64,000 bases of DNA from contig JAQCEV010000004.1 in NCBI GenBank assembly GCA_027618515.1, positions 355 to 64,354 on the forward strand. Direction: 5' to 3'. The translations under genes were made by a program, and so were the position numbers. Positions 536 through 57,967 of this stretch are shown one piece after another; position 1 is the first letter of the stretch, and every line of letters starts with the position of its first letter. This DNA is from Chloroflexota bacterium (GTDB lineage: Bacteria; Chloroflexota; Dehalococcoidia; Lucifugimonadales; Australimonadaceae). The notes below the pieces were generated by a model. The model saw nothing but the letters and a program-made list of their open reading frames with translations. It did not search any database and was not told the origin of the DNA.

Positions 536-751
536 ATGAATAAGGACGATCAGTACCTGATGGTCCGGATGCGCAGCTGATACCGCTCTTGAAGAGGTAA
601 CTTCGAAGAGACCACGGGGATGGTCTCCAGCGTGTTTGGATATACGGCAGAGCAGCTCGCGAAAAAGCTCAAAGAGGTTGCTGCGGAGAAAGCTTTCGAT
701 CCGGAGTACAAGGAGTTGCGCGAAGGCTTGCCGGAAAAGTTCCTGTTCTAA
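536..751 (+). CDS. Candidate 71-aa selenoprotein with two in-frame UGA codons (S-U-Y-R-S-U)
   Basis: RBS GAGGGAGG then ATG at 536; TGA at 578-580 and 590-592; the frame continues with protein-like sequence to TAA at 749-751; SECIS-like hairpins at 586-610 and 608-627. Confidence 0.6.
586..627 (+). promoter_or_regulatory. Two overlapping SECIS-like hairpins
   Basis: CTCTTGAAG-AGGTAA-CTTC(G)AAGAG with its loop 14 nt after UGA1, and GAGACCA-CGGGGA-TGGTCTC with its loop 22 nt after UGA2; G at loop position 2 in both. Confidence 0.55.
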
Positions 752-1523
752 GGACTGCGACTAGGTAGGCTGGGGAGTCGCACCTGCAACTGGCGCATGT
801 TCAAACGTGCGCCCGCCCAGGATTCACGTCGGCCGGTGATGGCCTGGATATGGCCGTCCCACTCAAGATTCCACGCCTCGATGCCTAGTTTCACCGCGCG
901 CCGCACACGATCTTGCGTCTCGTCGTCGAGCGCTAGCTTGCGGATGAGCTCGATCTGTCGTGAGCCGTGGCCGATATCTTGCTCGGCGTGTAGCTTGTAG
1001 GTCTCAGCGGCGTGTTCAGAGAAACCGTAGTGGCCGACGAGTTCCGGGTAGGCGATGCCCGCCGCCCCATCGTGACCACCATGCTGGGCTTCCACCAAAG
1101 CCAACATGGCGACGCCTTCTAAAGCAGAACGCCTCTGGCAATGGCAAGGATCATCTCGATCGCTGCCAGAGTGCCGGGGGCGGGATCGGCGTTGTCGGCG
1201 TCCTCGCGGGAGATGCCACCCTCTTCCAGGAACTGGAACATGATGTCCACGTGGGAGCGCTCGCCTGCGAGTTCTTCCATGTAATTTTCCAGTACGACTT
1301 CGGAAAGGCCAGGCACGCGCTCGGAGGCTGCGTTGACGGCGATGTAGCCGAAGTAGACGGGGTTTTCCCGCACGCGCAGGTAGTGTTGGACCTCACCGAT
1401 GACGATCTCTTCGCGGGTCCAGCGGTGATTGGCAATGCCCTGGAACCACGGGTGCTCCCTCATGGGCACCTGCAGTGCGTAATCCCAAAGCTCTGCGATG
1501 AAGTCGTCAGGTTTCTGGGCCAT
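748..1523 (-). pseudogene. Heme-oxygenase-like diiron enzyme (CADD/PqqC/TenA superfamily), split by a 1-nt frameshift near 1145
   Basis: N-half (MAQKPDD...EELAGERSH) and C-half (VEAQ...HAEQDIGH) lie in different frames; restoring one base gives continuous IEMILxHCQRRSALEGVAMLALVEAQH. Confidence 0.75.
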
Positions 1524-46996: not shown

Positions 46997-48394
46997 ATGA
47001 CGGACGAGAACACGCCAGAGGATCCTCAACGCCATTCCTCAGAGCCTGATCTTGGCCCCTCGACCGAGGTGGTCGCAGGGGCCAAAATCGCTGTGCTGTT
47101 GGAGCAGAACGAAGCTGAGGCGGCTGCGCAGGCGCTGGAGGCGCTACGCCCGGTGGACCAAGCGGCGGTCATCGGTCATCTGGCTAGCGCGCTGCGGCCG
47201 CTATTGATCGCGGTGTTGGACAGTGAGGCAACCTCACGCATCGTTGAGGAGATGCACCCAGAGGATGGAGCCGAGATCACGGCGCTCCTTTCGCCAGCGG
47301 ACGTCGCTGACGTCCTTGACCTGGTGAGCCCGGACACCGCCGCTGACTTGTTGCGGGCGATGCCGTATGAGGAAGCGCAAGGCGCGCTGACTGCGATGAC
47401 CCACTCCGAAGGCGTCGCGTCTCTGCTGGACTACGCGGACGACGTCGCTGGCGGTCGCATGACGACTGAATACGCAGCCGTACTTGCGGAGGTGACACCT
47501 GCGGTCGCGCTGGACGCGGTGAGCTTGATCAACGAAGAACATGGCGACGTGAGCACGATTTTCGTTGTTGACGCGGCGCGTCACCTCGTCGGGTGGGTGC
47601 GCCTCCGACGCTTGGCGCTGGCGCGTCCGAATCAGGTGGTCAGCGATCTCATGGAATCAGCCGTGTCCGTTGAAGCGTCCGAGGATCAAGAGGCGTGTGC
47701 CCGCCTGGTTGCGCGCTACGACCTCACCCAACTGCCGGTCACTGACGAAAGTGGCGTGTTGCTGGGCGTTATCCACGCGGACGAGCTACTGGACGTTGCT
47801 GCTGAGGAGGCGACCGAGGATATGTTCCGCATGGCGGGCATGCAGGGCGAACGGCTCTTTGGTTCCTTAGGCCGGTCCGTGAGGACGCGACTACCGTGGC
47901 TCACCCTGAATCTGCTCACCACATTTGCGGCAGCGGGCGTCATCAGCCTCTTCGAGGGCACCATCGAGCGCCTGGCGGTGCTTGCGATATTCCTCCCGGT
48001 CGTCGCGGGCCAGGGCGGGATCGCTGGGACGCAGACGCTGACCTTGGTCGTGCGTGGTATCGCGCTGGGTGAGATCACAGGGCGGGGCGCGCGCCGGATG
48101 CTCATCCGCGAATCGCTGCTGGGCGGGCTGCATGGCCTCTACCTTGCGCTGCTGGTGGGACTCGTCGGCCTCGTGTGGGTCGGCGAGCCGATCCTCGCGG
48201 TCGTGCTCGGTGTGGCGATGCTCGGCAATATGCTGGTCGCAGGCATCGTTGGCGCAGGTGTGCCACTCCTGCTGCGAGCGCTTCGCCAAGACCCCGCCGT
48301 CTCGTCGGCGGTGGTCGTCACGACCGCCACTGACATCGCTGGCTTCTTGCTGTTCCTGGGACTGGCGTCGCTGTTCATCGATCGCCTGGTCTGA
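46997..48394 (+). CDS. mgtE: Magnesium transporter MgtE
   Basis: MgtE-N domain, CBS pair, RLPWL, GQGGIAGTQ and DPA.SS...TT..D motifs. Confidence 0.93.
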   Translation: MTDENTPEDPQRHSSEPDLGPSTEVVAGAKIAVLLEQNEAEAAAQALEALRPVDQAAVIGHLASALRPLLIAVLDSEATSRIVEEMHPEDGAEITALLSPADVADVLDLVSPDTAADLLRAMPYEEAQGALTAMTHSEGVASLLDYADDVAGGRMTTEYAAVLAEVTPAVALDAVSLINEEHGDVSTIFVVDAARHLVGWVRLRRLALARPNQVVSDLMESAVSVEASEDQEACARLVARYDLTQLPVTDESGVLLGVIHADELLDVAAEEATEDMFRMAGMQGERLFGSLGRSVRTRLPWLTLNLLTTFAAAGVISLFEGTIERLAVLAIFLPVVAGQGGIAGTQTLTLVVRGIALGEITGRGARRMLIRESLLGGLHGLYLALLVGLVGLVWVGEPILAVVLGVAMLGNMLVAGIVGAGVPLLLRALRQDPAVSSAVVVTTATDIAGFLLFLGLASLFIDRLV

Positions 48395-48491
48395 TGGCCC
48401 GGTTTGAGCGGAGGCTCTGGGCTTGATAGCGGCCGACGTGGAATCCACCCGGCGATAGGCGATACTACTGCGGATATGACAGGAGGTTCAG

Positions 48492-48683
48492 ATGCGCTAC
48501 GCAATCGCTTGAGCGGATCTCGGGGTGGTCTGGTGTGACCACGAGGTTATTACGGATAACGCCGACGATCTGGTGAATGAAGCCCGGGCTCACGCCGTGG
48601 CCGTCCACGTGCAGGACCATGAGGCGTTCGACTCCGTTGAGTACGGCTTGCTGGTGAAGGCCGCGATGCGTGAGGTCGAGTAG
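48492..48683 (+). CDS. Candidate selenoprotein, DUF1059-like small metal-binding protein (U at residue 7)
   Basis: RBS AGGAGG; MRYAIA-TGA-ADLGVVWCDHEVITDNADDLVNEARAHAVAVHVQDHEAFDSVEYGLLVKAAMREVE*; the TGA falls at the Cys of the C-x-D-x-G..C / H-x4-H pattern; SECIS-like hairpin follows. Confidence 0.7.
48517..48547 (+). promoter_or_regulatory. SECIS-like hairpin
   Basis: ATCTC(GGG)GTGGTC-TGGTGT-GACCACGAGGT; loop starts 18 nt after the UGA at 48510-48512. Confidence 0.6.
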
Positions 48684-48801
48684 CAAGCGGCGTCTACGCG
48701 ACAGGCGCGCCCGCATTTGGGGACGAGGATTGGATGCTACGCTCCCGTCGCGTAGCGCGAACGTGCAAAAATGGCGCTATCGCTGATCGGAGGCGCCACG
48801 C

Positions 48802-50205
48802 ATGACCACCGGAACCCATTCGACGCAAGACCTAGCCATTACGTGGGCGGACTACGCCTCACGCGTCACCTACGACGACCTGCCGGACAACGTGAGACGA
48901 ATCTTGCGTTGGCTGGTGCTCGACACGCTATCCACGACGCTCGCCGCGAACACGTTGGGCGTGGGTATCCCACAACTCCTGACCTGGGCGCGAGGCGCGG
49001 GTGGCACGCCTGAGGCAACACTGATCGGCTTCGGCGACCGGCTGCCCGCGGCGGCTGCCGCGATGGTCAACGGCGGCATGGCCCATGCGCTGAACTTCGA
49101 CGATACGACGGCGGTGGGCTCCGGCCACCTCGGCCCCGTGACGTTCCCGTCGGCGTTCGCTGCTGCTGAATTGCGTGGCGGTGCCACGGGCAAAGAGTTG
49201 ATGGCATCTATCGCGGTCGGTGCCGAACTGATGTCACGCATCGGCGTTGCCCTCACCAAGGCGCAGACGTCCTACACGGAAGCCAAGCCGCAACCCACTC
49301 AGATGCCCGGGTTCTTCGCGTCAGCACTCAGCGCATCTCACATGCTTGATTTCGACGCGCTCCAAACGCACTCCGCGCTCGGTCTTGCGTTCATGCAGGC
49401 ATCTGGTGGCCGCCAGCCCGTGCTGGACGGCCGCCCAGCCAAGGCCATCTACGCTGCGTTCAGCAACCAGGGTGGCATGCAGGCAGCACTGCTGACGCGA
49501 CATGGATTGCTAGGCGATTGTGACGTTTTCGAGGGCAAAGCCGGGTTCTTCCCCACCTACTACGACGGCGCCTTCGATCGCCCTTCACTGGTGGATGGTC
49601 TTGGCGACGAATTCTTCCTGACCAACGTTGGCTTCAAGCCGTGGCCGACCACAGGCGTAGCACACGTGTTCATCGCTGCTGCTGCGGATCTCCACCGCGA
49701 GCTAGACCCCGCTGACATCCAGCGCGTGCGCATCATCGGGGAGCCGCACCTAGCGAGTTTCTGCGAGCCCAGCCAGATACGACGCAATCCGCAGGCGCCC
49801 GTCGAGGCCGAGGACAGCGTGCTGTTCACCACGGCCAAGGCGCTCGCCACCGGTGACATGACGCTTGCCGACCTCCAACCGACAACCCAGGGGCTATTTG
49901 ACGACCAGGCCATCCGCATAGCGAACCTGATTGAGTGGGAGGTCGACGAATCCCTGGGACGTTCCGGGATCGTTGAAGTCACGCTGGGTTCTGGGGAAGT
50001 GCGCACCCGTCGCGTCGACCAGGCCCCCGGCCACCGCGACAACCCCCTCACCGACGACCAACGCCAACAGAAATTCATCGCCTGCGCCCAGCACGCCGGG
50101 TCGACCCTCAGCGAAGCGTCGCTCCGCCAGGTCATCGACCTCGTCGATAACCTGGAGGACGTTCCCGATGTGCGAGTATTTGCCTCTCTGCTTTCTGGCG
50201 AATAG
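48802..50205 (+). CDS. MmgE/PrpD family protein
   Basis: NGGMAHALNFDD, GFKPWP and PGHRDNPLT motifs. Confidence 0.9.
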   Translation: MTTGTHSTQDLAITWADYASRVTYDDLPDNVRRILRWLVLDTLSTTLAANTLGVGIPQLLTWARGAGGTPEATLIGFGDRLPAAAAAMVNGGMAHALNFDDTTAVGSGHLGPVTFPSAFAAAELRGGATGKELMASIAVGAELMSRIGVALTKAQTSYTEAKPQPTQMPGFFASALSASHMLDFDALQTHSALGLAFMQASGGRQPVLDGRPAKAIYAAFSNQGGMQAALLTRHGLLGDCDVFEGKAGFFPTYYDGAFDRPSLVDGLGDEFFLTNVGFKPWPTTGVAHVFIAAAADLHRELDPADIQRVRIIGEPHLASFCEPSQIRRNPQAPVEAEDSVLFTTAKALATGDMTLADLQPTTQGLFDDQAIRIANLIEWEVDESLGRSGIVEVTLGSGEVRTRRVDQAPGHRDNPLTDDQRQQKFIACAQHAGSTLSEASLRQVIDLVDNLEDVPDVRVFASLLSGE

Positions 50206-50340: not shown

Positions 50341-51729
50341 ATGGTAGATATCATCCGAGCGCGAGGAGACTACTCCATCGCTGAGTACATCGATAGTGAG
50401 AAGGGAACCGTGAGTCGCGAACTCTACGTGAATCCCGACATCTTCGAGCAGGAGATGGAGCAGATCTTCCAGCGCTGCTGGCTGTTCCTCGGCCACGAGA
50501 GCCAGTTGCCCAACCCTGGCGATTTCATCGTCAGCCGCATGGGCACTGAAGAGGTCATTGTCGTCCGCGACCGCAACGACAACAAGATTCGGGCCTTCCT
50601 GAACTCCTGTCGCCACCGTGGCATGAAGGTCTGCCGGTATGACGAGGGCAACGCCCTCGTCTTCACCTGTCCCTTCCACGCTTGGACTTATGACACGACT
50701 GGCAGCTTGGTTGGTGCTGGTTTCTACAACCGCCCGGATGCCTCCACCGACACCTTGCCACGTGAGAACTGGGGCCTCAGCGAGGTTGCGCAGTTCAAGA
50801 ACTTCTACGGCTCCCTCTGGGCGACGTGGGACCCTAAAGCCCCGTCCTTCGAGGACTACCTTGGCCCCTTCGCCGAGAGCCTTCGCCACTGCCTCCAGTC
50901 GAGCGACGGTGAAGACAACGGGCTTGAGTTCTTCACGCCGTTCCAGCGCCACCGTCTCCCGACCAACTGGAAGGTTCCTGGCTTCACCTCGGTCACCGAC
51001 CTCACGCACACGGCCATGACGCACCGATCGTCGCAAGCCGCAGGCCTCCACCAAGATCGTGGACAGGGCAAAGAGAAGCCCACTATCCCGTTCCCGCAGG
51101 AGAAGTACGCCATCGGAGACCACAGCCTCGGCCACGGTGGGATGTGCACGTTCTACAACCAAGCGGGCGTCCCGCAGTACACCAACGAATGGTTCGAACC
51201 TGGCGTTGACGACTACTTCCGTGATGCCACGGAACGTAAAGCCCAGAAGTACGTCGACCGTGTCATGGCCCCCCATGGCTGGGGTGGCGGTCACTTCGCC
51301 ATCTTCCCCGCCGTCATGGTGGATAGCTGGCGCCTACGCTGGTACCACCCGCACGAGACCGGCATGACCGAGCGCTGGACGCTCTCCGGCGTCGACAAGA
51401 ACGCGCCGAAAGAGGTGAAGGACGCGGTACGGCATTACTCCGAGCGCTTCAACGGCCCGATCGGTTTCTTCGAGTCCGACGACATGGAGAACTGGAACTA
51501 CGTGTACCCGGCCAGCCAGGGCGCCCGAGCGCGCAAGCTGGACTATTTCTTCCGGAACGGAATCGGCCATGGCAAGTACGACGACCGCCTCCCTGGGGTC
51601 ATCGTCAACGGCTCGTACACCGAAGAAGCCCAACGCGCGCGCTTCAGCCGGTGGCTCGCCTTCATGGAAGCCAAATCCTGGGATGACCTATACCCGATCA
51701 ACAAGTCCAGCGCCCGTCGCATCTGGTAA
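50341..51729 (+). CDS. Aromatic ring-hydroxylating Rieske dioxygenase, alpha subunit
   Basis: Rieske CRH...CPFH; mononuclear-Fe DLTHTAMTH and ESDDMENW. Confidence 0.93.
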   Translation: MVDIIRARGDYSIAEYIDSEKGTVSRELYVNPDIFEQEMEQIFQRCWLFLGHESQLPNPGDFIVSRMGTEEVIVVRDRNDNKIRAFLNSCRHRGMKVCRYDEGNALVFTCPFHAWTYDTTGSLVGAGFYNRPDASTDTLPRENWGLSEVAQFKNFYGSLWATWDPKAPSFEDYLGPFAESLRHCLQSSDGEDNGLEFFTPFQRHRLPTNWKVPGFTSVTDLTHTAMTHRSSQAAGLHQDRGQGKEKPTIPFPQEKYAIGDHSLGHGGMCTFYNQAGVPQYTNEWFEPGVDDYFRDATERKAQKYVDRVMAPHGWGGGHFAIFPAVMVDSWRLRWYHPHETGMTERWTLSGVDKNAPKEVKDAVRHYSERFNGPIGFFESDDMENWNYVYPASQGARARKLDYFFRNGIGHGKYDDRLPGVIVNGSYTEEAQRARFSRWLAFMEAKSWDDLYPINKSSARRIW

Positions 51730-51753
51730 ACCCCCTCCGGCAAGGAATGAGCA

Positions 51754-51987
51754 ATGGCTGAAGCAAACAAGTACGACCTCTCAGGGCAGGGTGGGATCCA
51801 GGTCTGGACCAACCTCCCTGACGGCGTAAAAATCACGCTCCTCAACGGAGCCCACGGCGAAGTCATCGCGAATCCCCATGACGGCGGATTCATACTGGTC
51901 AAGTTCGACGAATTTCCCACCGACCCATCACGCGTGGGCACACAGGGATACGTATTCTTCAACGAGGTTCGGTCTGCGCAGGACTAG
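51754..51987 (+). CDS. 77-aa hypothetical protein between the dioxygenase alpha and beta genes
   Basis: RBS AAGGA; co-oriented with both neighbours; beta-rich; no Cys. Confidence 0.7.
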   Translation: MAEANKYDLSGQGGIQVWTNLPDGVKITLLNGAHGEVIANPHDGGFILVKFDEFPTDPSRVGTQGYVFFNEVRSAQD

Positions 51988-52037
51988 GTCACCGCGATGG
52001 CGGGCCACGCCTGTTCGACCGGACGAGGAGTAATGAG

Positions 52038-52580
52038 ATGGTAGAGATTGGCTCAGACAGAGCATCCCTAGAACGTTTGATATTGCAGCAGGAGCTAGAG
52101 AAGTTCCTGTACAGAGAAGCGCGCCTGCTTGATGAGCGGCGGCTGGAAGAGTGGCTCGACCTATTGGCCGAGGAGATCCACTACTGGATGCCCATGCGGA
52201 GAAACGTCAAGTTCGGCGATTGGGACAGGGAATTCACCAGCGCTGAGACGGAGATCAACTGGTTCAACGAGGGTAAAGAGATCCTTGAGGGCCGCATCCG
52301 GCAGCTCAATACGGGTGTCCACTGGCCTGAGGAGCCCGTCTCTCGCTACGAGCACATAGTTACCAACGTCGAGATCATGGACGTTACTGGCGACGAGATA
52401 CGCGTCAACAGTAAGTTCTTCTGCTACCAGAACCGCCTCCAAGATGAGGTGAACACCTGGGTAGGCCGCCGAGAGGATCTGCTGCGCCGCGACGCAGAGA
52501 CCGGCTTCAAGGTCGTCAAGCGCAAGATCATCCTCGCCCAAAACGTGATGCTGCCAAAGGTCGTCAACACGTTCTTTTAG
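52038..52580 (+). CDS. Ring-hydroxylating dioxygenase beta subunit (BphA2/HcaF-like)
   Basis: FLYREARLLDERR..EWL.L, YWMP and W.EEP.SR motifs. Confidence 0.93.
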   Translation: MVEIGSDRASLERLILQQELEKFLYREARLLDERRLEEWLDLLAEEIHYWMPMRRNVKFGDWDREFTSAETEINWFNEGKEILEGRIRQLNTGVHWPEEPVSRYEHIVTNVEIMDVTGDEIRVNSKFFCYQNRLQDEVNTWVGRREDLLRRDAETGFKVVKRKIILAQNVMLPKVVNTFF

Positions 52581-52720
52581 GCTGCCCGCTGGGATGATGG
52601 GATGGGATGCAAGACAGGAGCGGGGGAGGGGATTGTCCTTGACCTCACACCTTGCACGAGAGAGTACCCTACGGCGAGAGGCCCACATGAGCCTCTCGCC
52701 ATTGCATATATGGAGAAGCC

Positions 52721-53065
52721 ATGACCGCGCGAATCGAGTGGAGAACCAACGGTAAAGGCGACGACGCGCTGATCTACGTAGGTGAGTTCGGCGAAGACAG
52801 CAACACCGTACTCAGGACGTGGGAAGCAGACGCCGCCCACCTCACCGACTTCTTGAACAAGATGACGGGATTTGCCACCGACGTCGTAGGCTTAGAGGTC
52901 GACGCCGAGAAGCGCGACCCGCTGCTGTATGGCCGACTCGTCATGACGCGGTCGCCCCACGGGCAGGTCATGCAGATCGACCCTGAACTCTACTGGGATG
53001 CCATCTACTACTGGTTCCGATCCAACGGTAGCGACCCCCACCCGATGCGCGAACTCACCACGTAG
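52721..53065 (+). CDS. Hypothetical protein
   Basis: RBS GGAG; 114 aa; genome-typical codon usage. Confidence 0.65.
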   Translation: MTARIEWRTNGKGDDALIYVGEFGEDSNTVLRTWEADAAHLTDFLNKMTGFATDVVGLEVDAEKRDPLLYGRLVMTRSPHGQVMQIDPELYWDAIYYWFRSNGSDPHPMRELTT

Positions 53066-53099
53066 CTCCTAGGCCCGCGCCATGCGAGCGCACCGCTCA

Positions 53100-54068
53100 T
53101 CACATGGTGATGACGATCTTGCCAACGAATCGGCCTTCCCCGAAATGCCGCAAAGCATCTGCGGCCTCGCTCAGCGCGTAGCGACTATCGATGGTAGGCA
53201 CTACTTTCCCTGCCTCGATAAGCTCCGCCAGGAAAGCCAAGTCTTTGTTCGGCTTCAGCGCTAGGATCCCGAACTTCTTGCTGCCGATCACTGAGAGGAT
53301 CGATCCCACGACCAGCCCCTGGAATATCCGTCCCATGGAGCCGCCGGCCATGACGTAGATTCCCCCAGGGTTCAGCACGCGCCTGTAATCGAAGATCGAA
53401 TGATGCGCCTCAAGATCAACGATCAGGTCGTAAAGCTCGCCACCCTGGGTGAAATCCTCGCGCGTGTAATCGATGACGTGGTCAGCGCCGACCGCGCGCA
53501 TGCCGTCCAGCTTGTTCGCGTTGTCCACGCCGGTCACCTCAGCCCCGAACGACTTGGCGATCTGCACGGCGAACGAACCTGCGCCACCGCCAGCCCCGTT
53601 CACCAGCACCTTTTGCCCTTGCTGAACGTGCCCTTTGTCGCGAACACCCTGGAGGGCGATGACCGCCGCTTGCGGCACCGCCGCTGCCTGCTCGAATGTC
53701 AGGTTGGTAGGCTTCAGCGCCAACACATCTTCACGAACGCATGCGTACTCGGCAAAAGCGCCAAACCCACTCCCCGATAGATCCCCGAACACCTCATCAC
53801 CGACGTGAAGCAGCGACACGTTTGCACCAACCGCTTCGACCTGTCCTGCGATGTCACAGCCGAGGATCGTGGCTTTTGGCTTCCGAAGGCCCCCGCCCGA
53901 AACACGAGCCATGAATGGCTTGCCTGTCAGGAGACCCCAGTCCCACGCGTTTATGGAAGCCGCGTGGATCCGCACAAGTACCTCGTTGTCCTTCGCGACT
54001 GGCTTGTCGACCTCTTTGAGCGCGAGAACATCCGGTGAGCCGTACTTCGTGTAGACGATCGCTTTCAT
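53100..54068 (-). CDS. Zinc-independent MDR / NAD(P)H quinone-oxidoreductase-like protein (paralog 1)
   Basis: YGSPDVL, NGAGGGAG and GKIVI motifs; no catalytic Zn ligands. Confidence 0.9.
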   Translation of the reverse strand: MKAIVYTKYGSPDVLALKEVDKPVAKDNEVLVRIHAASINAWDWGLLTGKPFMARVSGGGLRKPKATILGCDIAGQVEAVGANVSLLHVGDEVFGDLSGSGFGAFAEYACVREDVLALKPTNLTFEQAAAVPQAAVIALQGVRDKGHVQQGQKVLVNGAGGGAGSFAVQIAKSFGAEVTGVDNANKLDGMRAVGADHVIDYTREDFTQGGELYDLIVDLEAHHSIFDYRRVLNPGGIYVMAGGSMGRIFQGLVVGSILSVIGSKKFGILALKPNKDLAFLAELIEAGKVVPTIDSRYALSEAADALRHFGEGRFVGKIVITM

Positions 54069-54129
54069 CGTGCCCTCCCGCCTCGTCGTTGGTTACTTGG
54101 ATTCCTCGACCTGAGCGACCGCCTCAGCC

Positions 54130-55104
54130 TCACATCGTGATGACGATCTTCCCGGTGAATGTGCCTTCCAGGAAGTACCGGAACGCGTCAGCGGTCTCGC
54201 TCAACGTGAAACGTCTATCGATGACAGGCACGACCGTGCCTGCCTCGATCATTCCGACCAAAAGATCGAGACCCTCGTTCGGTTTCGCTCCAACCGTGCC
54301 CATCTTCTTGCGCCCGAGCATCGAGACGAACCGCCCCACGAGCTCCGCCTGGAAGAAGCGCGCCTGGGAACCACCGATCACGCCGTATGCGCCCGTGGGA
54401 CTCAGCGCGCGCTTGTAATCGAAAGTCGAACGCGACGCCGCAACATCGACGATCAGGTCGTAGCGCTGGCCGTTCTTCGTGAAATCTTCCTGCGCGTAAT
54501 CGATAAAGTGATCCGCACCGAGCGACCGCACCACGTCCCGCTTGCTGGCGCTGTCCACGCCCGTCACCTCGGCCCCAAACGACTTAGCGATCTGCACCGC
54601 GAGCGTCCCCACCCCACCCCCGGCGCCGTTGATCAGAACCTTCTGCCCTGGCTGGATCTGTCCGTTGAAGCGAAGAGCTCCTAGGGCGAGGGCGCCCACC
54701 TGCGGCAGGGCCGCCGCCTGCTCGAACGTCAGGCTCGCAGGCTTTTTCAGCATGGAGCTTTCGCGCGCACACACGAACTCGGCGAACCCACCCCAACCGA
54801 TCGAGAGCAATCGCTTGCTGACCTCTCCGAACACCTCATCACCTACGTTGTGCAACGTGACGTTGCTGCCAACCGCTTCAACCCGCCCCGCTACGTCTGT
54901 TCCCAGGATCTTGTGTTTGGGCCTTAGGAATCCCTCGAACGGACGAGCCAGCAAGCTGCCTCTTAGGAAATCAACGTCCCATGAATTGATGGACGCTGTG
55001 GTGACCGCTACCAGCACCTCATCGTCCATCGGAACCGGTTTGTCGACTTCCTGGAGCTTGAGAACGTCAGGCGAGCCGTACTTGTTATAGACGATTGCTT
55101 TCAT
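54130..55104 (-). CDS. Zinc-independent MDR / NAD(P)H quinone-oxidoreductase-like protein (paralog 2)
   Basis: Same motifs as paralog 1, with an identical C-terminus GKIVITM. Confidence 0.9.
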   Translation of the reverse strand: MKAIVYNKYGSPDVLKLQEVDKPVPMDDEVLVAVTTASINSWDVDFLRGSLLARPFEGFLRPKHKILGTDVAGRVEAVGSNVTLHNVGDEVFGEVSKRLLSIGWGGFAEFVCARESSMLKKPASLTFEQAAALPQVGALALGALRFNGQIQPGQKVLINGAGGGVGTLAVQIAKSFGAEVTGVDSASKRDVVRSLGADHFIDYAQEDFTKNGQRYDLIVDVAASRSTFDYKRALSPTGAYGVIGGSQARFFQAELVGRFVSMLGRKKMGTVGAKPNEGLDLLVGMIEAGTVVPVIDRRFTLSETADAFRYFLEGTFTGKIVITM

Positions 55105-55342
55105 ATGTTGAACGCCCTTTTCTGAGTGCATCAGGCTGTGAACAGAGTGCGAGCCGCTTCCCTAGTGCCAACCTAGTTCGCAGTCGTGAACCGGGCATGC
55201 ACCGAGTGCGATCGCCCGTGTGGTTCGTGTGCCGTCCCCGCAGGCGTGCGGGCGCGTTGACACTCCTTCGGGCCAGTCCTACCATCGCCAAAGGTGCCGT
55301 ATCAGGTAGCCCTGCGACGAATTTCACAGGAGTTTCCCCCGC

Positions 55343-56614
55343 ATGCTCTCTGTTTCTGACAACGAGAAGATTACGCGCGTCGGACGCGGAACGCCCATGG
55401 GCGAACTCATGCGCCGCTATTGGCAACCCGTCCTCCTCTCCCGCGAGGTCGCCGAGCCCGATGGCGACCCCATCCGCGTACGCATCCTGGGTGAGGACCT
55501 GGTCGCTTTCCGCGACACCAGCGGTCGCGTGGGCATGATCTCAGAGTGGTGCCCCCATCGCCTCACGTCCATGTTCCTCGGTCGCAACGAGGAGGACGGC
55601 CTCCGCTGCGTGTACCACGGCTGGAAGTTCGACGTGACAGGCGCTTGCGTGGACATGCCCAACGAGCCTGAGGAATTCGACTTCAAGCACAAGGTCAACA
55701 TGGTCGCGTACCCCACGCTCGACATGGGTGGCGTGATCTGGGTCTACATGGGCCCCGCTGATCAGCAACCTCCCCCTCCCAAGTTCGAGTTCACCCAGCA
55801 GCCCGAGACTCACCGTGGTGTGTCGAAGGTCATTGAGGAGTGCAACTGGCTCCAGGCGATGGAGGGAGGACTAGATTCTGTCCACTCGTCGTTCCTCCAC
55901 CGCAAGTTGGCCGCAGGCGACGGCCTTGGCTTCGATGGTCTTCGCGCCGACGCGACCGCCGGGCGACTGGACGTGGAGACCGAGGACTACGGCTACCGCT
56001 ACGCCGCGCACCGGCCGATACCCGGTAGGGAAGACAACTACGTCCGCTCGTACCATTTCGTCATGCCCCACGTGCAGATCCGTGCGGCGCAGTTGAACAA
56101 TGATGGCTCCTGGTTGAAGTTCAAGATCGCAGGCCACCACTGGGTGCCCATCGACGACCACACCACCCTCGTCTGGAACTGGCTCTACAGCCTCGATGAG
56201 CCGCTAACCAAAGACGAGCAGGAGGAGCGTGGCTTCGGCAACGGCCCCAACGACGTTGACCAGCAAACGTTCCGTGCTGCTGGTAACAAGCGTAACGATT
56301 GGCGGATCGACCGCGCCAAGCAGCGCACCGCTAGCTTCACAGGCATCGATGGAGTGAACGCTCAAGATAGGGCAGTGCAAGAGTCCATGGGGGCGGTCGT
56401 CAATCGCTCGCAGGAGCACTTAGGCCAGACGGACAAGGCCATCATCACCATGCGCAAGATGTTGATGAACGCGATTGCGGTCGTGCAGGACGGTGGAGTG
56501 CCGCCTGGTGCGTCGGATTCCTACTACCACCTACGTGGGATCGAAGAAGTGTTGCCGCAGGATGCTGCGGGGCTCGAAGTTCTGGCTGACAAGATGTTCG
56601 CCAGAACCAGTTGA
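55343..56614 (+). CDS. Rieske oxygenase, phthalate-4,5-dioxygenase/LigX-like (paralog 1)
   Basis: CPHR...CVYHGW, NWLQ..EG..D..H...LH and QDRAVQE motifs. Confidence 0.92.
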   Translation: MLSVSDNEKITRVGRGTPMGELMRRYWQPVLLSREVAEPDGDPIRVRILGEDLVAFRDTSGRVGMISEWCPHRLTSMFLGRNEEDGLRCVYHGWKFDVTGACVDMPNEPEEFDFKHKVNMVAYPTLDMGGVIWVYMGPADQQPPPPKFEFTQQPETHRGVSKVIEECNWLQAMEGGLDSVHSSFLHRKLAAGDGLGFDGLRADATAGRLDVETEDYGYRYAAHRPIPGREDNYVRSYHFVMPHVQIRAAQLNNDGSWLKFKIAGHHWVPIDDHTTLVWNWLYSLDEPLTKDEQEERGFGNGPNDVDQQTFRAAGNKRNDWRIDRAKQRTASFTGIDGVNAQDRAVQESMGAVVNRSQEHLGQTDKAIITMRKMLMNAIAVVQDGGVPPGASDSYYHLRGIEEVLPQDAAGLEVLADKMFARTS

Positions 56615-56695
56615 TTGATTCAGCCCCGCTAGCGGGCTAAAGTGTCGGCCAAGGTGAGAACCCGAGCCGACCCATACGCAGTGAGGAGATCAGAG

Positions 56696-57967
56696 ATGCT
56701 TTCAGTTGCTGATAACGAGAAGTTGACGAAGGTCGGGCCGGGGACTCCCATGGGGAACCTGATGCGCCGCTACTGGCAGCCCGTGCTGCTTGCCCGCGAG
56801 GTTGCGGACAACGACGGCGACCCCATCCGCGTGCGTATCCTCGGCGAAGAGTTGGTGGCGTTCCGCGACACCAGCGGGCGCGTGGGCCTCATCTCCGAGT
56901 GGTGCCCCCATCGCCTCACGTCCATGTTCCTCGGTCGCAACGAAGAGGACGGCCTCCGCTGCGTGTACCACGGCTGGAAGTTCGACGTTACGGGCTCATG
57001 CGTGGACATGCCCAACGAGCCCGAAGAGTTCGACTTCAAGCACAAGGTGAAGATGATCGCCTACCCAACAGAAGAGATGGGCGGCGTCATCTGGGCCTAC
57101 ATGGGGCCCGCCGAGTTGAAGCCTGTATTGCCGAAGTTCGAGTTCACGCAGCAGCCTGAGTCGCACCGTGGCGCGTCCAAGGTGATCGAGGAGTGCAACT
57201 GGCTCCAGGGGCTTGAAGGCGGCATCGACAGCATCCACTCGTCGTTCCTGCACCGCAAGATCGGCGAAGGCAAGGGCATCGGCCTCGATGGCCTTCGCGC
57301 AGAAGGCCTCGCTGGCAAGCTCGACGTTGAGCCCACGGACTACGGCTACCGTTACACGAACTCGCGTGGACTCCCCGGCAAGGGGCAGAACTACGTCCGC
57401 GGCTACCACTTCGTCATGCCGCACATCCAGGTCCGCGCCGCGCAGTTGAACAACAACGGTGACTGGTACAAATTCAAGATCGCAGGGCACCACTGGGTGC
57501 CCATCGACGACCACACGACGATGGTCTGGAACTGGTTCTACAGCCTGGACGAGGCGCTGACCCAGGATGAGAAGGACGAGGAGATCAGCGGGAACGGCCC
57601 GGCGTACGTTGATCCCGTGACCTTCCGGGCAGCAGTGAACCCGCGCAACAACTGGTTGATCGACCGTGACATGCAGCGCAAAGAGAACTTCACGGGCATC
57701 CAAGGCGTGAACGCGCAGGACAGGGCGGTTCAAGAGGCCATGGGCCCCATCGTGAATCGCTCCAAGGAGCACTTGGGCCAGACCGACAGGGCCGTCATCA
57801 TGACGCGCCGGATGTTGCTGAAGGCCGTCGACACAGTCGCCGACGGTGGAACGCCCCCAGGACTCGGCGAGTCCTACTACGCGGTTCGCGCTATCGAAGA
57901 CGTTCTACCCGAGGAAGACTTCGGGCTAGATGCGCTATCGGAGCGGATGTTCGCAGGAGCTCGCTAA
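56696..57967 (+). CDS. Rieske oxygenase, phthalate-4,5-dioxygenase/LigX-like (paralog 2)
   Basis: Same motifs and same length (423 aa) as paralog 1; RBS GAGGAG. Confidence 0.92.
   Translation: MLSVADNEKLTKVGPGTPMGNLMRRYWQPVLLAREVADNDGDPIRVRILGEELVAFRDTSGRVGLISEWCPHRLTSMFLGRNEEDGLRCVYHGWKFDVTGSCVDMPNEPEEFDFKHKVKMIAYPTEEMGGVIWAYMGPAELKPVLPKFEFTQQPESHRGASKVIEECNWLQGLEGGIDSIHSSFLHRKIGEGKGIGLDGLRAEGLAGKLDVEPTDYGYRYTNSRGLPGKGQNYVRGYHFVMPHIQVRAAQLNNNGDWYKFKIAGHHWVPIDDHTTMVWNWFYSLDEALTQDEKDEEISGNGPAYVDPVTFRAAVNPRNNWLIDRDMQRKENFTGIQGVNAQDRAVQEAMGPIVNRSKEHLGQTDRAVIMTRRMLLKAVDTVADGGTPPGLGESYYAVRAIEDVLPEEDFGLDALSERMFAGAR

Follow-up and report, generated by a model that had tools for sequence, protein, structure and literature searches.

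Does the TGA at the seventh codon of a small open reading frame (ORF) in this DNA end translation, or is it read as selenocysteine (Sec)? The ORF lies in the window (the whole stretch of 64,000 nucleotides that was analyzed), and the original prediction had assigned it to a DUF1059-like small metal-binding protein with Sec in place of its first conserved Cys. The gene bears every computational mark of a bacterial selenoprotein. Taken as a whole, a selenoprotein with a predicted metal site is the best explanation of the locus, to which we give a probability of about 0.8.

The gene and its family

The ORF first described, with AGGAGG at 48481-48486, ATG at 48492, TGA at codon 7, 56 further sense codons, and TAG at 48681-48683, was found again with an identical translation (Table 1). 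The pairing energy of the Shine-Dalgarno sequence (calculated with a 7-nucleotide anti-Shine-Dalgarno core) was −10.7 kcal/mol for ATG 48492 versus −3.3 kcal/mol for an internal GTG at 48525, at which gene callers start the gene to give a 52-residue database product (P0009). A dicodon model, for which 1351 long ORFs from the host genome served as training set, scored the frame behind the TGA as coding (+10.1), versus −16.8 and −13.1 for the other plus-strand frames; the mirrored minus-strand frame also scored +9.4. The gene stands alone between mgtE and an MmgE/PrpD gene, and neither a sigma-70 promoter nor an intrinsic terminator was found within 48300-48900. In a separate metagenome assembly (L043) with nearly identical DNA the TGA is kept while other letters differ, and it is therefore not an assembly error.

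Table 1. Positions of the gene, its start signal, the hairpin and the codons of the predicted ligands in the window
Feature	Position	Strand	Basis
Shine-Dalgarno AGGAGGU	48481..48487	+	sequence; 4-5 nt upstream of ATG
63-codon DUF1059 gene, predicted Sec at codon 7	48492..48683	+	Pfam match, coding score, Cys/TGA alignment
In-frame TGA, predicted Sec codon, on first conserved DUF1059 Cys	48510..48512	+	alignment A4; same-codon TGA in G006, G449, G569, L043
bSECIS-type hairpin: lower stem 48516-48521/48543-48548, 3-nt bulge, 6-bp upper stem 48525-48530/48537-48542, loop 48531-48536	48516..48548	+	minimum free energy (MFE) fold
Cys15 codon, predicted ligand 2, within hairpin loop	48534..48536	+	Cys in 32/32 A4 rows
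His34 codon, predicted ligand 3	48591..48593	+	His in 32/32 A4 rows
His39 codon, predicted ligand 4	48606..48608	+	His in 29/32 A4 rows

When the translation was searched against Pfam with U given as C, it matched DUF1059 (PF06348) at 22.6 bits (E = 1.2e-4), above the curated gathering cutoff of 21.1 bits, which bears out the assignment to this family. The TGA also falls where it had been placed, on the first conserved Cys: all full-length Cys rows of alignment A4 have Cys at position 7. The predicted ligands are U7, C15, H34, and H39, with spacings of x7, x18, and x4, and of these Cys15 and His34 are invariant. The first-ligand state was assessed in 103 distinct profile matches, which comprise all fetched loci (chosen, not random); it was C in 79 and U in 4, and 20 were without the full pattern. 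Sec forms are therefore a small minority of DUF1059 matches, and all four U residues fall on the first ligand position. The host genome (3.0 Mb, 94% complete) contains three Cys DUF1059 paralogs. A DUF1059 gene has been reported within group 1m [NiFe]-hydrogenase clusters (PMC9561532). Elsewhere in the family, two adjoining genes at L109 (G449:C78:1258-2109) each consist of two DUF1059 repeats.

The same codon in other genomes

The TGA is shared with other assemblies. Besides L043, a TGA at the same codon was found in G006 (another genus of the same family) and in two genomes from other families of the class, G449 and G569. The G006 protein (M-T-I-H-I-A-U-A-D-T-G-I-T-W-C) is 35% identical to that of the window, and its gene lies directly behind that of a Cys paralog; those of G449 and G569 share K-V-L-R-U-x-D-x-S-x-M-Y-C. 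The six residues upstream of the TGA fit the first strand of the family, and in G449 they (MAKVLR) equal those of a Cys form in G464. In G006, selA, selB, selD, and tRNA-Sec are present. In G449 (71% complete), selB and tRNA-Sec were found and selA and selD were not; in G569, selD and tRNA-Sec are present.

The frequency of the family and of its Sec forms was assessed by several searches. The 32-row profile matched in 77 of 401 genomes of the class, 46 of 401 of the order, and 22 of 186 of the phylum. These samples overlap, and one of the 77 is G665, which is flagged as unpublished and used in no other result. Both genomes of the window's own genus were without a match. A U form may show up only as a partial match, as that of G569 did, and 39 partial or odd regions were examined. 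A TGA-motif pattern scan of genome contigs gave 27 matches, namely, the G006 gene and 26 chance matches. A search for related loci confirmed 0 of 29 in genome contigs and gave two in metagenome contigs, of which L043 was real and L044 a chance match. A profile search of 1.84 billion representatives returned seven matches, from which P0003 and P0007 were dropped as repeat artifacts.

Truncated homologs in the databases may mark further genes of this kind. All eight matches to a profile of the window gene's subgroup (one being the window gene itself) are 51 to 54 residues long and start at residue 10 to 13, just past the TGA. With a profile of the G449 and G569 proteins, six of seven matches (two being G449 and G569 themselves) start at residue 13, and the seventh (P0021) is a full Cys form. 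In total, 11 additional homologs, namely, P0002, P0004, P0006, P0010 to P0013, and P0017 to P0020, begin just after the predicted Sec codon; these are mostly known here as protein entries alone. Contigs of four runs were also aligned to the window at 80% likeness, and three divergent relatives cover codon 7: X15 record 2 (55 other letters, with changes matching P0010), X15 record 3 (with a loose end matching P0004), and X16 record 4 (with changes fitting P0011). Among the 40 of 77 difference rows listed, none is a change within 48510-48512. For X15, the two A>C changes and the single A>T change that were tallied all lie elsewhere, which excludes TGC and TGT in both X15 contigs. X15 record 2 and X16 record 4 rejoin the window at the prpD gene.

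These homologs bear on whether the TGA is a true stop, either because a Cys codon has mutated to a stop in a paralog that is being lost or because translation restarts at GTG 48525 to yield the 52-residue product. A single change turns TGC or TGT into TGA, the host retains its three Cys paralogs, and the short form (P0009) is the one called in databases. Moreover, the lineage can lose the residue at position 7, as seen in P0005, a close relative with Arg at this position and a diverged tail that is probably a decayed copy, and a DUF1059 gene of G668 is broken by a TGA elsewhere. A stop does not, however, account well for a TGA at the same codon in four genomes of three families, with 11 further homologs starting just behind it, with ligands and frame intact in all, and with tRNA-Sec in all four genomes. 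In addition, the ribosome-binding site is strong before the ATG and weak before the GTG, and the first strand upstream of the TGA is conserved. We therefore consider a true stop quite unlikely and retain the reading as Sec. The G668 homolog, in which the TGA lies off any ligand and the tail is degenerate, was regarded as a broken gene and excluded from the count.

In trees, the U forms occupied two or three spots beside Cys genes (a second tree was built without 8 of the 37 rows, mostly long or redundant). A single clade of U forms was not rejected by the approximately unbiased (AU) test (P = 0.095), and repeated gain of Sec is therefore not claimed.

Decoding machinery, hairpin, and other candidates

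The Sec machinery on which the original prediction depended is encoded by the host, with selA, selB, selC (tRNA-Sec), and selD (the last with its own in-frame TGA) all present. The tRNA-Sec scored 71.4 bits against a cutoff of 47 and is 98 nucleotides long with a long extra arm. Cys in the aligned column of homologs would also suit a UGA that is read as Cys, or as Trp, through an altered code or a suppressor tRNA. Yet this tRNA-Sec was the only tRNA with a TCA anticodon found, release factor 2 is present, and TGA ends 289 of the 1351 long ORFs of the host; there is therefore no general recoding, and decoding as Cys or Trp is highly improbable. We favor instead that UGA codon 7 would be read as Sec by the SelB and tRNA-Sec of the host via the hairpin directly behind it; actual insertion of Sec, inferred from these features together, is very probable.

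The hairpin proposed to follow the UGA is indeed the MFE fold, with its loop 18 nucleotides from the UGA and a G at loop position 2 (+20). Its upper stem is GUGGUC/GACCAC, its loop is UGGUGU, and its energy is −15 kcal/mol. Published criteria for bSECIS elements are a loop of 3 to 9 nucleotides, a stem of 4 to 16 bp, a G in the first two loop positions, a spacing of 16 to 37 nucleotides, and an MFE of ≤ −7.5 (PMC13188914, Fig. 2 legend), and the hairpin, with a loop of 6 nucleotides and an upper stem of 6 bp, lies within all of them. It exceeds dinucleotide shuffles in stability by a modest margin (three cuts gave z = −1.5, −1.7, and −2.9, with 15, 11, and 2 of 200 shuffles equally good).

Hairpins were further assessed with two filters, a strict one (contiguous stem), which was set first, and a bulge-tolerant one, which was written after the strict results had been seen. 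The strict filter passed the window gene and the G006 gene (2 of the 4 genes with TGA at the first ligand) and 13 of 16 other read-through candidates in the host genome (described below), against a background of 24 of 287 TGA stops, 309 of 3927 Cys codons, and 5 of 32 Cys DUF1059 genes. The G449 and G569 genes failed this filter, as did host selD (locus L011, G000:C112), the TGA of which is without a passing hairpin. With the bulge-tolerant filter, 4 of 4 DUF1059 genes and 16 of 16 other candidates passed, against 46 of 287 TGA stops, 693 of 3927 Cys codons, and 8 of 32 Cys DUF1059 genes. The hairpins of G449 and G569 have a bulged stem and the loop UGUAY in common, and they differ at one stem pair by a compensatory exchange of G-C for C-G. 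The peptide V-V-W-C-D-H by itself favors a stem: of synonymous recodings of the window peptide, 48.6% passed the strict and 43.8% the relaxed filter, and 6.2% were equally stable (relaxed pass rates were 28%, 11%, and 12% for recodings of the G006, G449, and G569 peptides, respectively). Because the peptide alone often yields such a stem, the weight of the hairpin is moderate, not decisive.

A scan of the host genome for TGA read-through ORFs gave 43 candidates, the DUF1059 gene included. As the original prediction had led one to expect, other TGA-interrupted ORFs were among them, 16 of which have redox-type motifs (UxxC/CxxU-like), which we take to be typical of selenoproteins. These ORFs, at least 16 in number and with SECIS-type hairpins, lie on contigs C50, C59, C61, C102, C112, C114, C115, C117, C120, C123, C126, C127, C134, C148, and C154 of the host (G000); their motifs include GA/AF-U-x-LT (C148 and C134), STT-U-P (C123), and FR-U-PF (C117).

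The ORF at 536-751 of the window (plus strand, 71 residues), which had been put forward as a companion gene, proved to be of another kind, with two in-frame TGAs at 578-580 and 590-592 (U-Y-R-S-U) and no relation in sequence to the DUF1059 gene. Its family gave 34 matches in 57 family genomes, all 34 with two TGAs; no Cys homolog was found in this search, and the ORF had no Pfam or NCBIfam match. A hairpin with G at +24 follows its second TGA. This ORF is a strong candidate in its own right for a new family with two Sec residues. The idea of a small selenoproteome in this lineage gains from it (34/57 genomes) and from the 16 candidates; the mutual support once claimed for the two genes does not hold in that form, as they belong to unrelated families and do not prove each other. 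In the remainder of the window, two adjoining ORFs at 751-1523 (minus strand, 119 and 134 residues) each match part of a heme-oxygenase-like/TENA fold, as if one enzyme had been split, and 50341-57964 contains the alpha and beta genes of a Rieske ring-hydroxylating dioxygenase, together with two other Rieske-like genes and a near-duplicate pair of quinone-oxidoreductase-like genes (the pair named by sequence look only).

Predicted metal site and comparison with known systems

The product would be a 63-residue DUF1059 protein with a predicted Sec7-Cys15-His34-His39 site. Its AlphaFold model (pLDDT, 93) consists of strand 2-6, turn 7-10, strand 18-21, helix 24-39, two short helices, and a last strand, with H34 and H39 at the helix end. 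A sequence search gave no solved relative, Foldseek gave nothing at E ≤ 0.001 against PDB and viral libraries, and the best Z of a wide structural search (3.8) was within background. From conservation, model topology, and the JGI name of P0008 and P0021 ("predicted small metal-binding protein"), we infer a four-ligand site; conservation and the beta-hairpin/helix arrangement of the model make it likely that Sec7, Cys15, His34, and His39 bind one metal.

A selenolate is ionized at neutral pH, and it binds soft metals more tightly and oxidizes more readily and reversibly than a thiolate. On the basis of this chemistry, a redox-sensitive metal holder is proposed: the site would likely hold one zinc-type metal ion, and oxidation of the selenolate may lead to its release or exchange. 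Without selenium, the UGA would stop translation after six residues and the three Cys paralogs would still be made. That the role is that of a redox-sensitive metal holder or chaperone, and not of a purely structural site, is suggested with some reserve. More speculative still is a broader picture, in which this is a natural selenium-ligated Cys2His2-type zinc site, Sec was gained more than once at the first DUF1059 ligand, the Sec form would act as a metal switch gated by selenium and sensitive to redox state, alongside Cys paralogs that are made at all times, and the protein is one of a set of hidden, very small selenoproteins of Dehalococcoidia that includes the two-Sec 536-751 family.

Gene context was examined in all four genomes. 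The Sec-type genes lie beside mgtE and prpD in the window; beside a kinase, a receiver-thioredoxin-reductase fusion, and uvrB in G006; and beside gap and hicB in G449. That of G569 (L130, G569:C74:1-12663) lies in a sulfur/selenium cluster with yeeE/yedE, three tusA-like genes, two tandem rhodaneses, selD with a TGA, a dsrE-like gene, and a JAB protease. No neighborhood is common to the four, and context therefore indicates no shared pathway. Cys DUF1059 genes adjoin a histidine kinase and a thioredoxin-reductase-like gene in G006 (L131, G006:C3) and G010 (L133, G010:C8); in L131, the thioredoxin-reductase-like gene is fused to a receiver domain, and the Sec paralog stands in tandem with the Cys-DUF1059 gene.

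These surroundings were weighed in considering whether the protein, although a selenoprotein, holds no metal, with Sec7 and Cys15 forming a redox pair (selenylsulfide) or serving as a selenium or sulfur carrier and the His residues being structural. The G569 cluster and the kinase and thioredoxin-reductase-like neighbors of DUF1059 genes in G006 and G010 would suit this reading, and most bacterial selenoproteins cataloged in PMC13188914 are redox proteins. However, in Cys forms as well as in Sec forms both His residues are nearly invariant, there is neither a thioredoxin fold nor a CxxU/UxxC motif (the spacing is 7), and the selenium/sulfur cluster is found in only one of four contexts, where the DUF1059 gene is on the opposite strand. 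We regard a metal-free pair or carrier as improbable and prefer the metal-binding selenoprotein.

The Sec form of DUF1059 is apparently uncataloged. As the original prediction had supposed, the family (PF06348) is not among known selenoproteins, at least as listed in the 119-family prokaryotic table of 2026 (PMC13188914, Table 1); other catalogs (BSepDB; Haft and Tolstoy 2025) may list it. A search of NCBIfam 20.0 gave no match to a selenoprotein model, the only match being unrelated (E = 0.084). By title and abstract, the DUF1059 literature (PMC9561532 and PMC12470103) does not deal with selenium, and a literature search gave nothing for COG5466 or for a small metal-binding protein with selenocysteine. 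Two Dehalococcoidia are among the ten richest selenoproteomes of BSepDB (PMC13326102). The gene would add to the bacterial selenoproteome a family missed by current catalogs and annotation, because databases, owing to the TGA at codon 7, list a shortened protein that looks plausible. Unlike the thioredoxin-type majority, this protein of 63 residues would have its Sec in a predicted metal site of the Cys2His2-like type. Such a site, with natural Cys twins in the same genome, offers a small, direct test system for selenium versus sulfur as a metal ligand, and a first handle on DUF1059 function.

Several cataloged small selenoproteins are similar in that Sec replaces a Cys thought to bind metal, namely, NF041115 (UxxU), MbdU (NF045648; CU), FmdB-family UxxU, CopZ-like GxUC/CU, and UXX-star proteins (PMC13188914, Table 1), and for SaoB, SaoC, and UXX-star proteins the same review states that Sec may coordinate metal (PMC13188914). 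Those proteins have Cys/Sec pairs, whereas a Sec-Cys-His-His set is predicted here, and no NCBIfam match to any of them was obtained. Cys DUF1059 proteins are alike in length (~55 to 65 residues), in the pattern C-x(1-9)-C-x(14-22)-H-x(2-5)-H, and in passing the Pfam cutoff; here, a TGA with a bSECIS-type hairpin behind it stands in place of the first Cys codon, and the subgroup of the window gene has a conserved DHEAF motif with an additional His. As in Cys2His2 (beta-beta-alpha) zinc fingers, such as p06 of the archaeal virus AFV1 (PDB 2LVH; rank 2 in the wide structural search, with Z = 3.6, root mean square deviation of 2.1, and 40 aligned residues, within the search background), the model places its pair of Cys-type residues on a hairpin and both His residues at a helix end. 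Classical fingers have the spacing C-x2-4-C-x12-H-x3-5-H; the DUF1059 protein departs from it with x7, x18, and x4, and it is acidic and has two extra helices. With respect to decoding, the gene follows the SelB/bSECIS paradigm of formate dehydrogenase, with a hairpin of the expected geometry directly after the UGA, and differs from it in that the loop also encodes the second predicted ligand, Cys15, so that RNA and protein constraints overlap.
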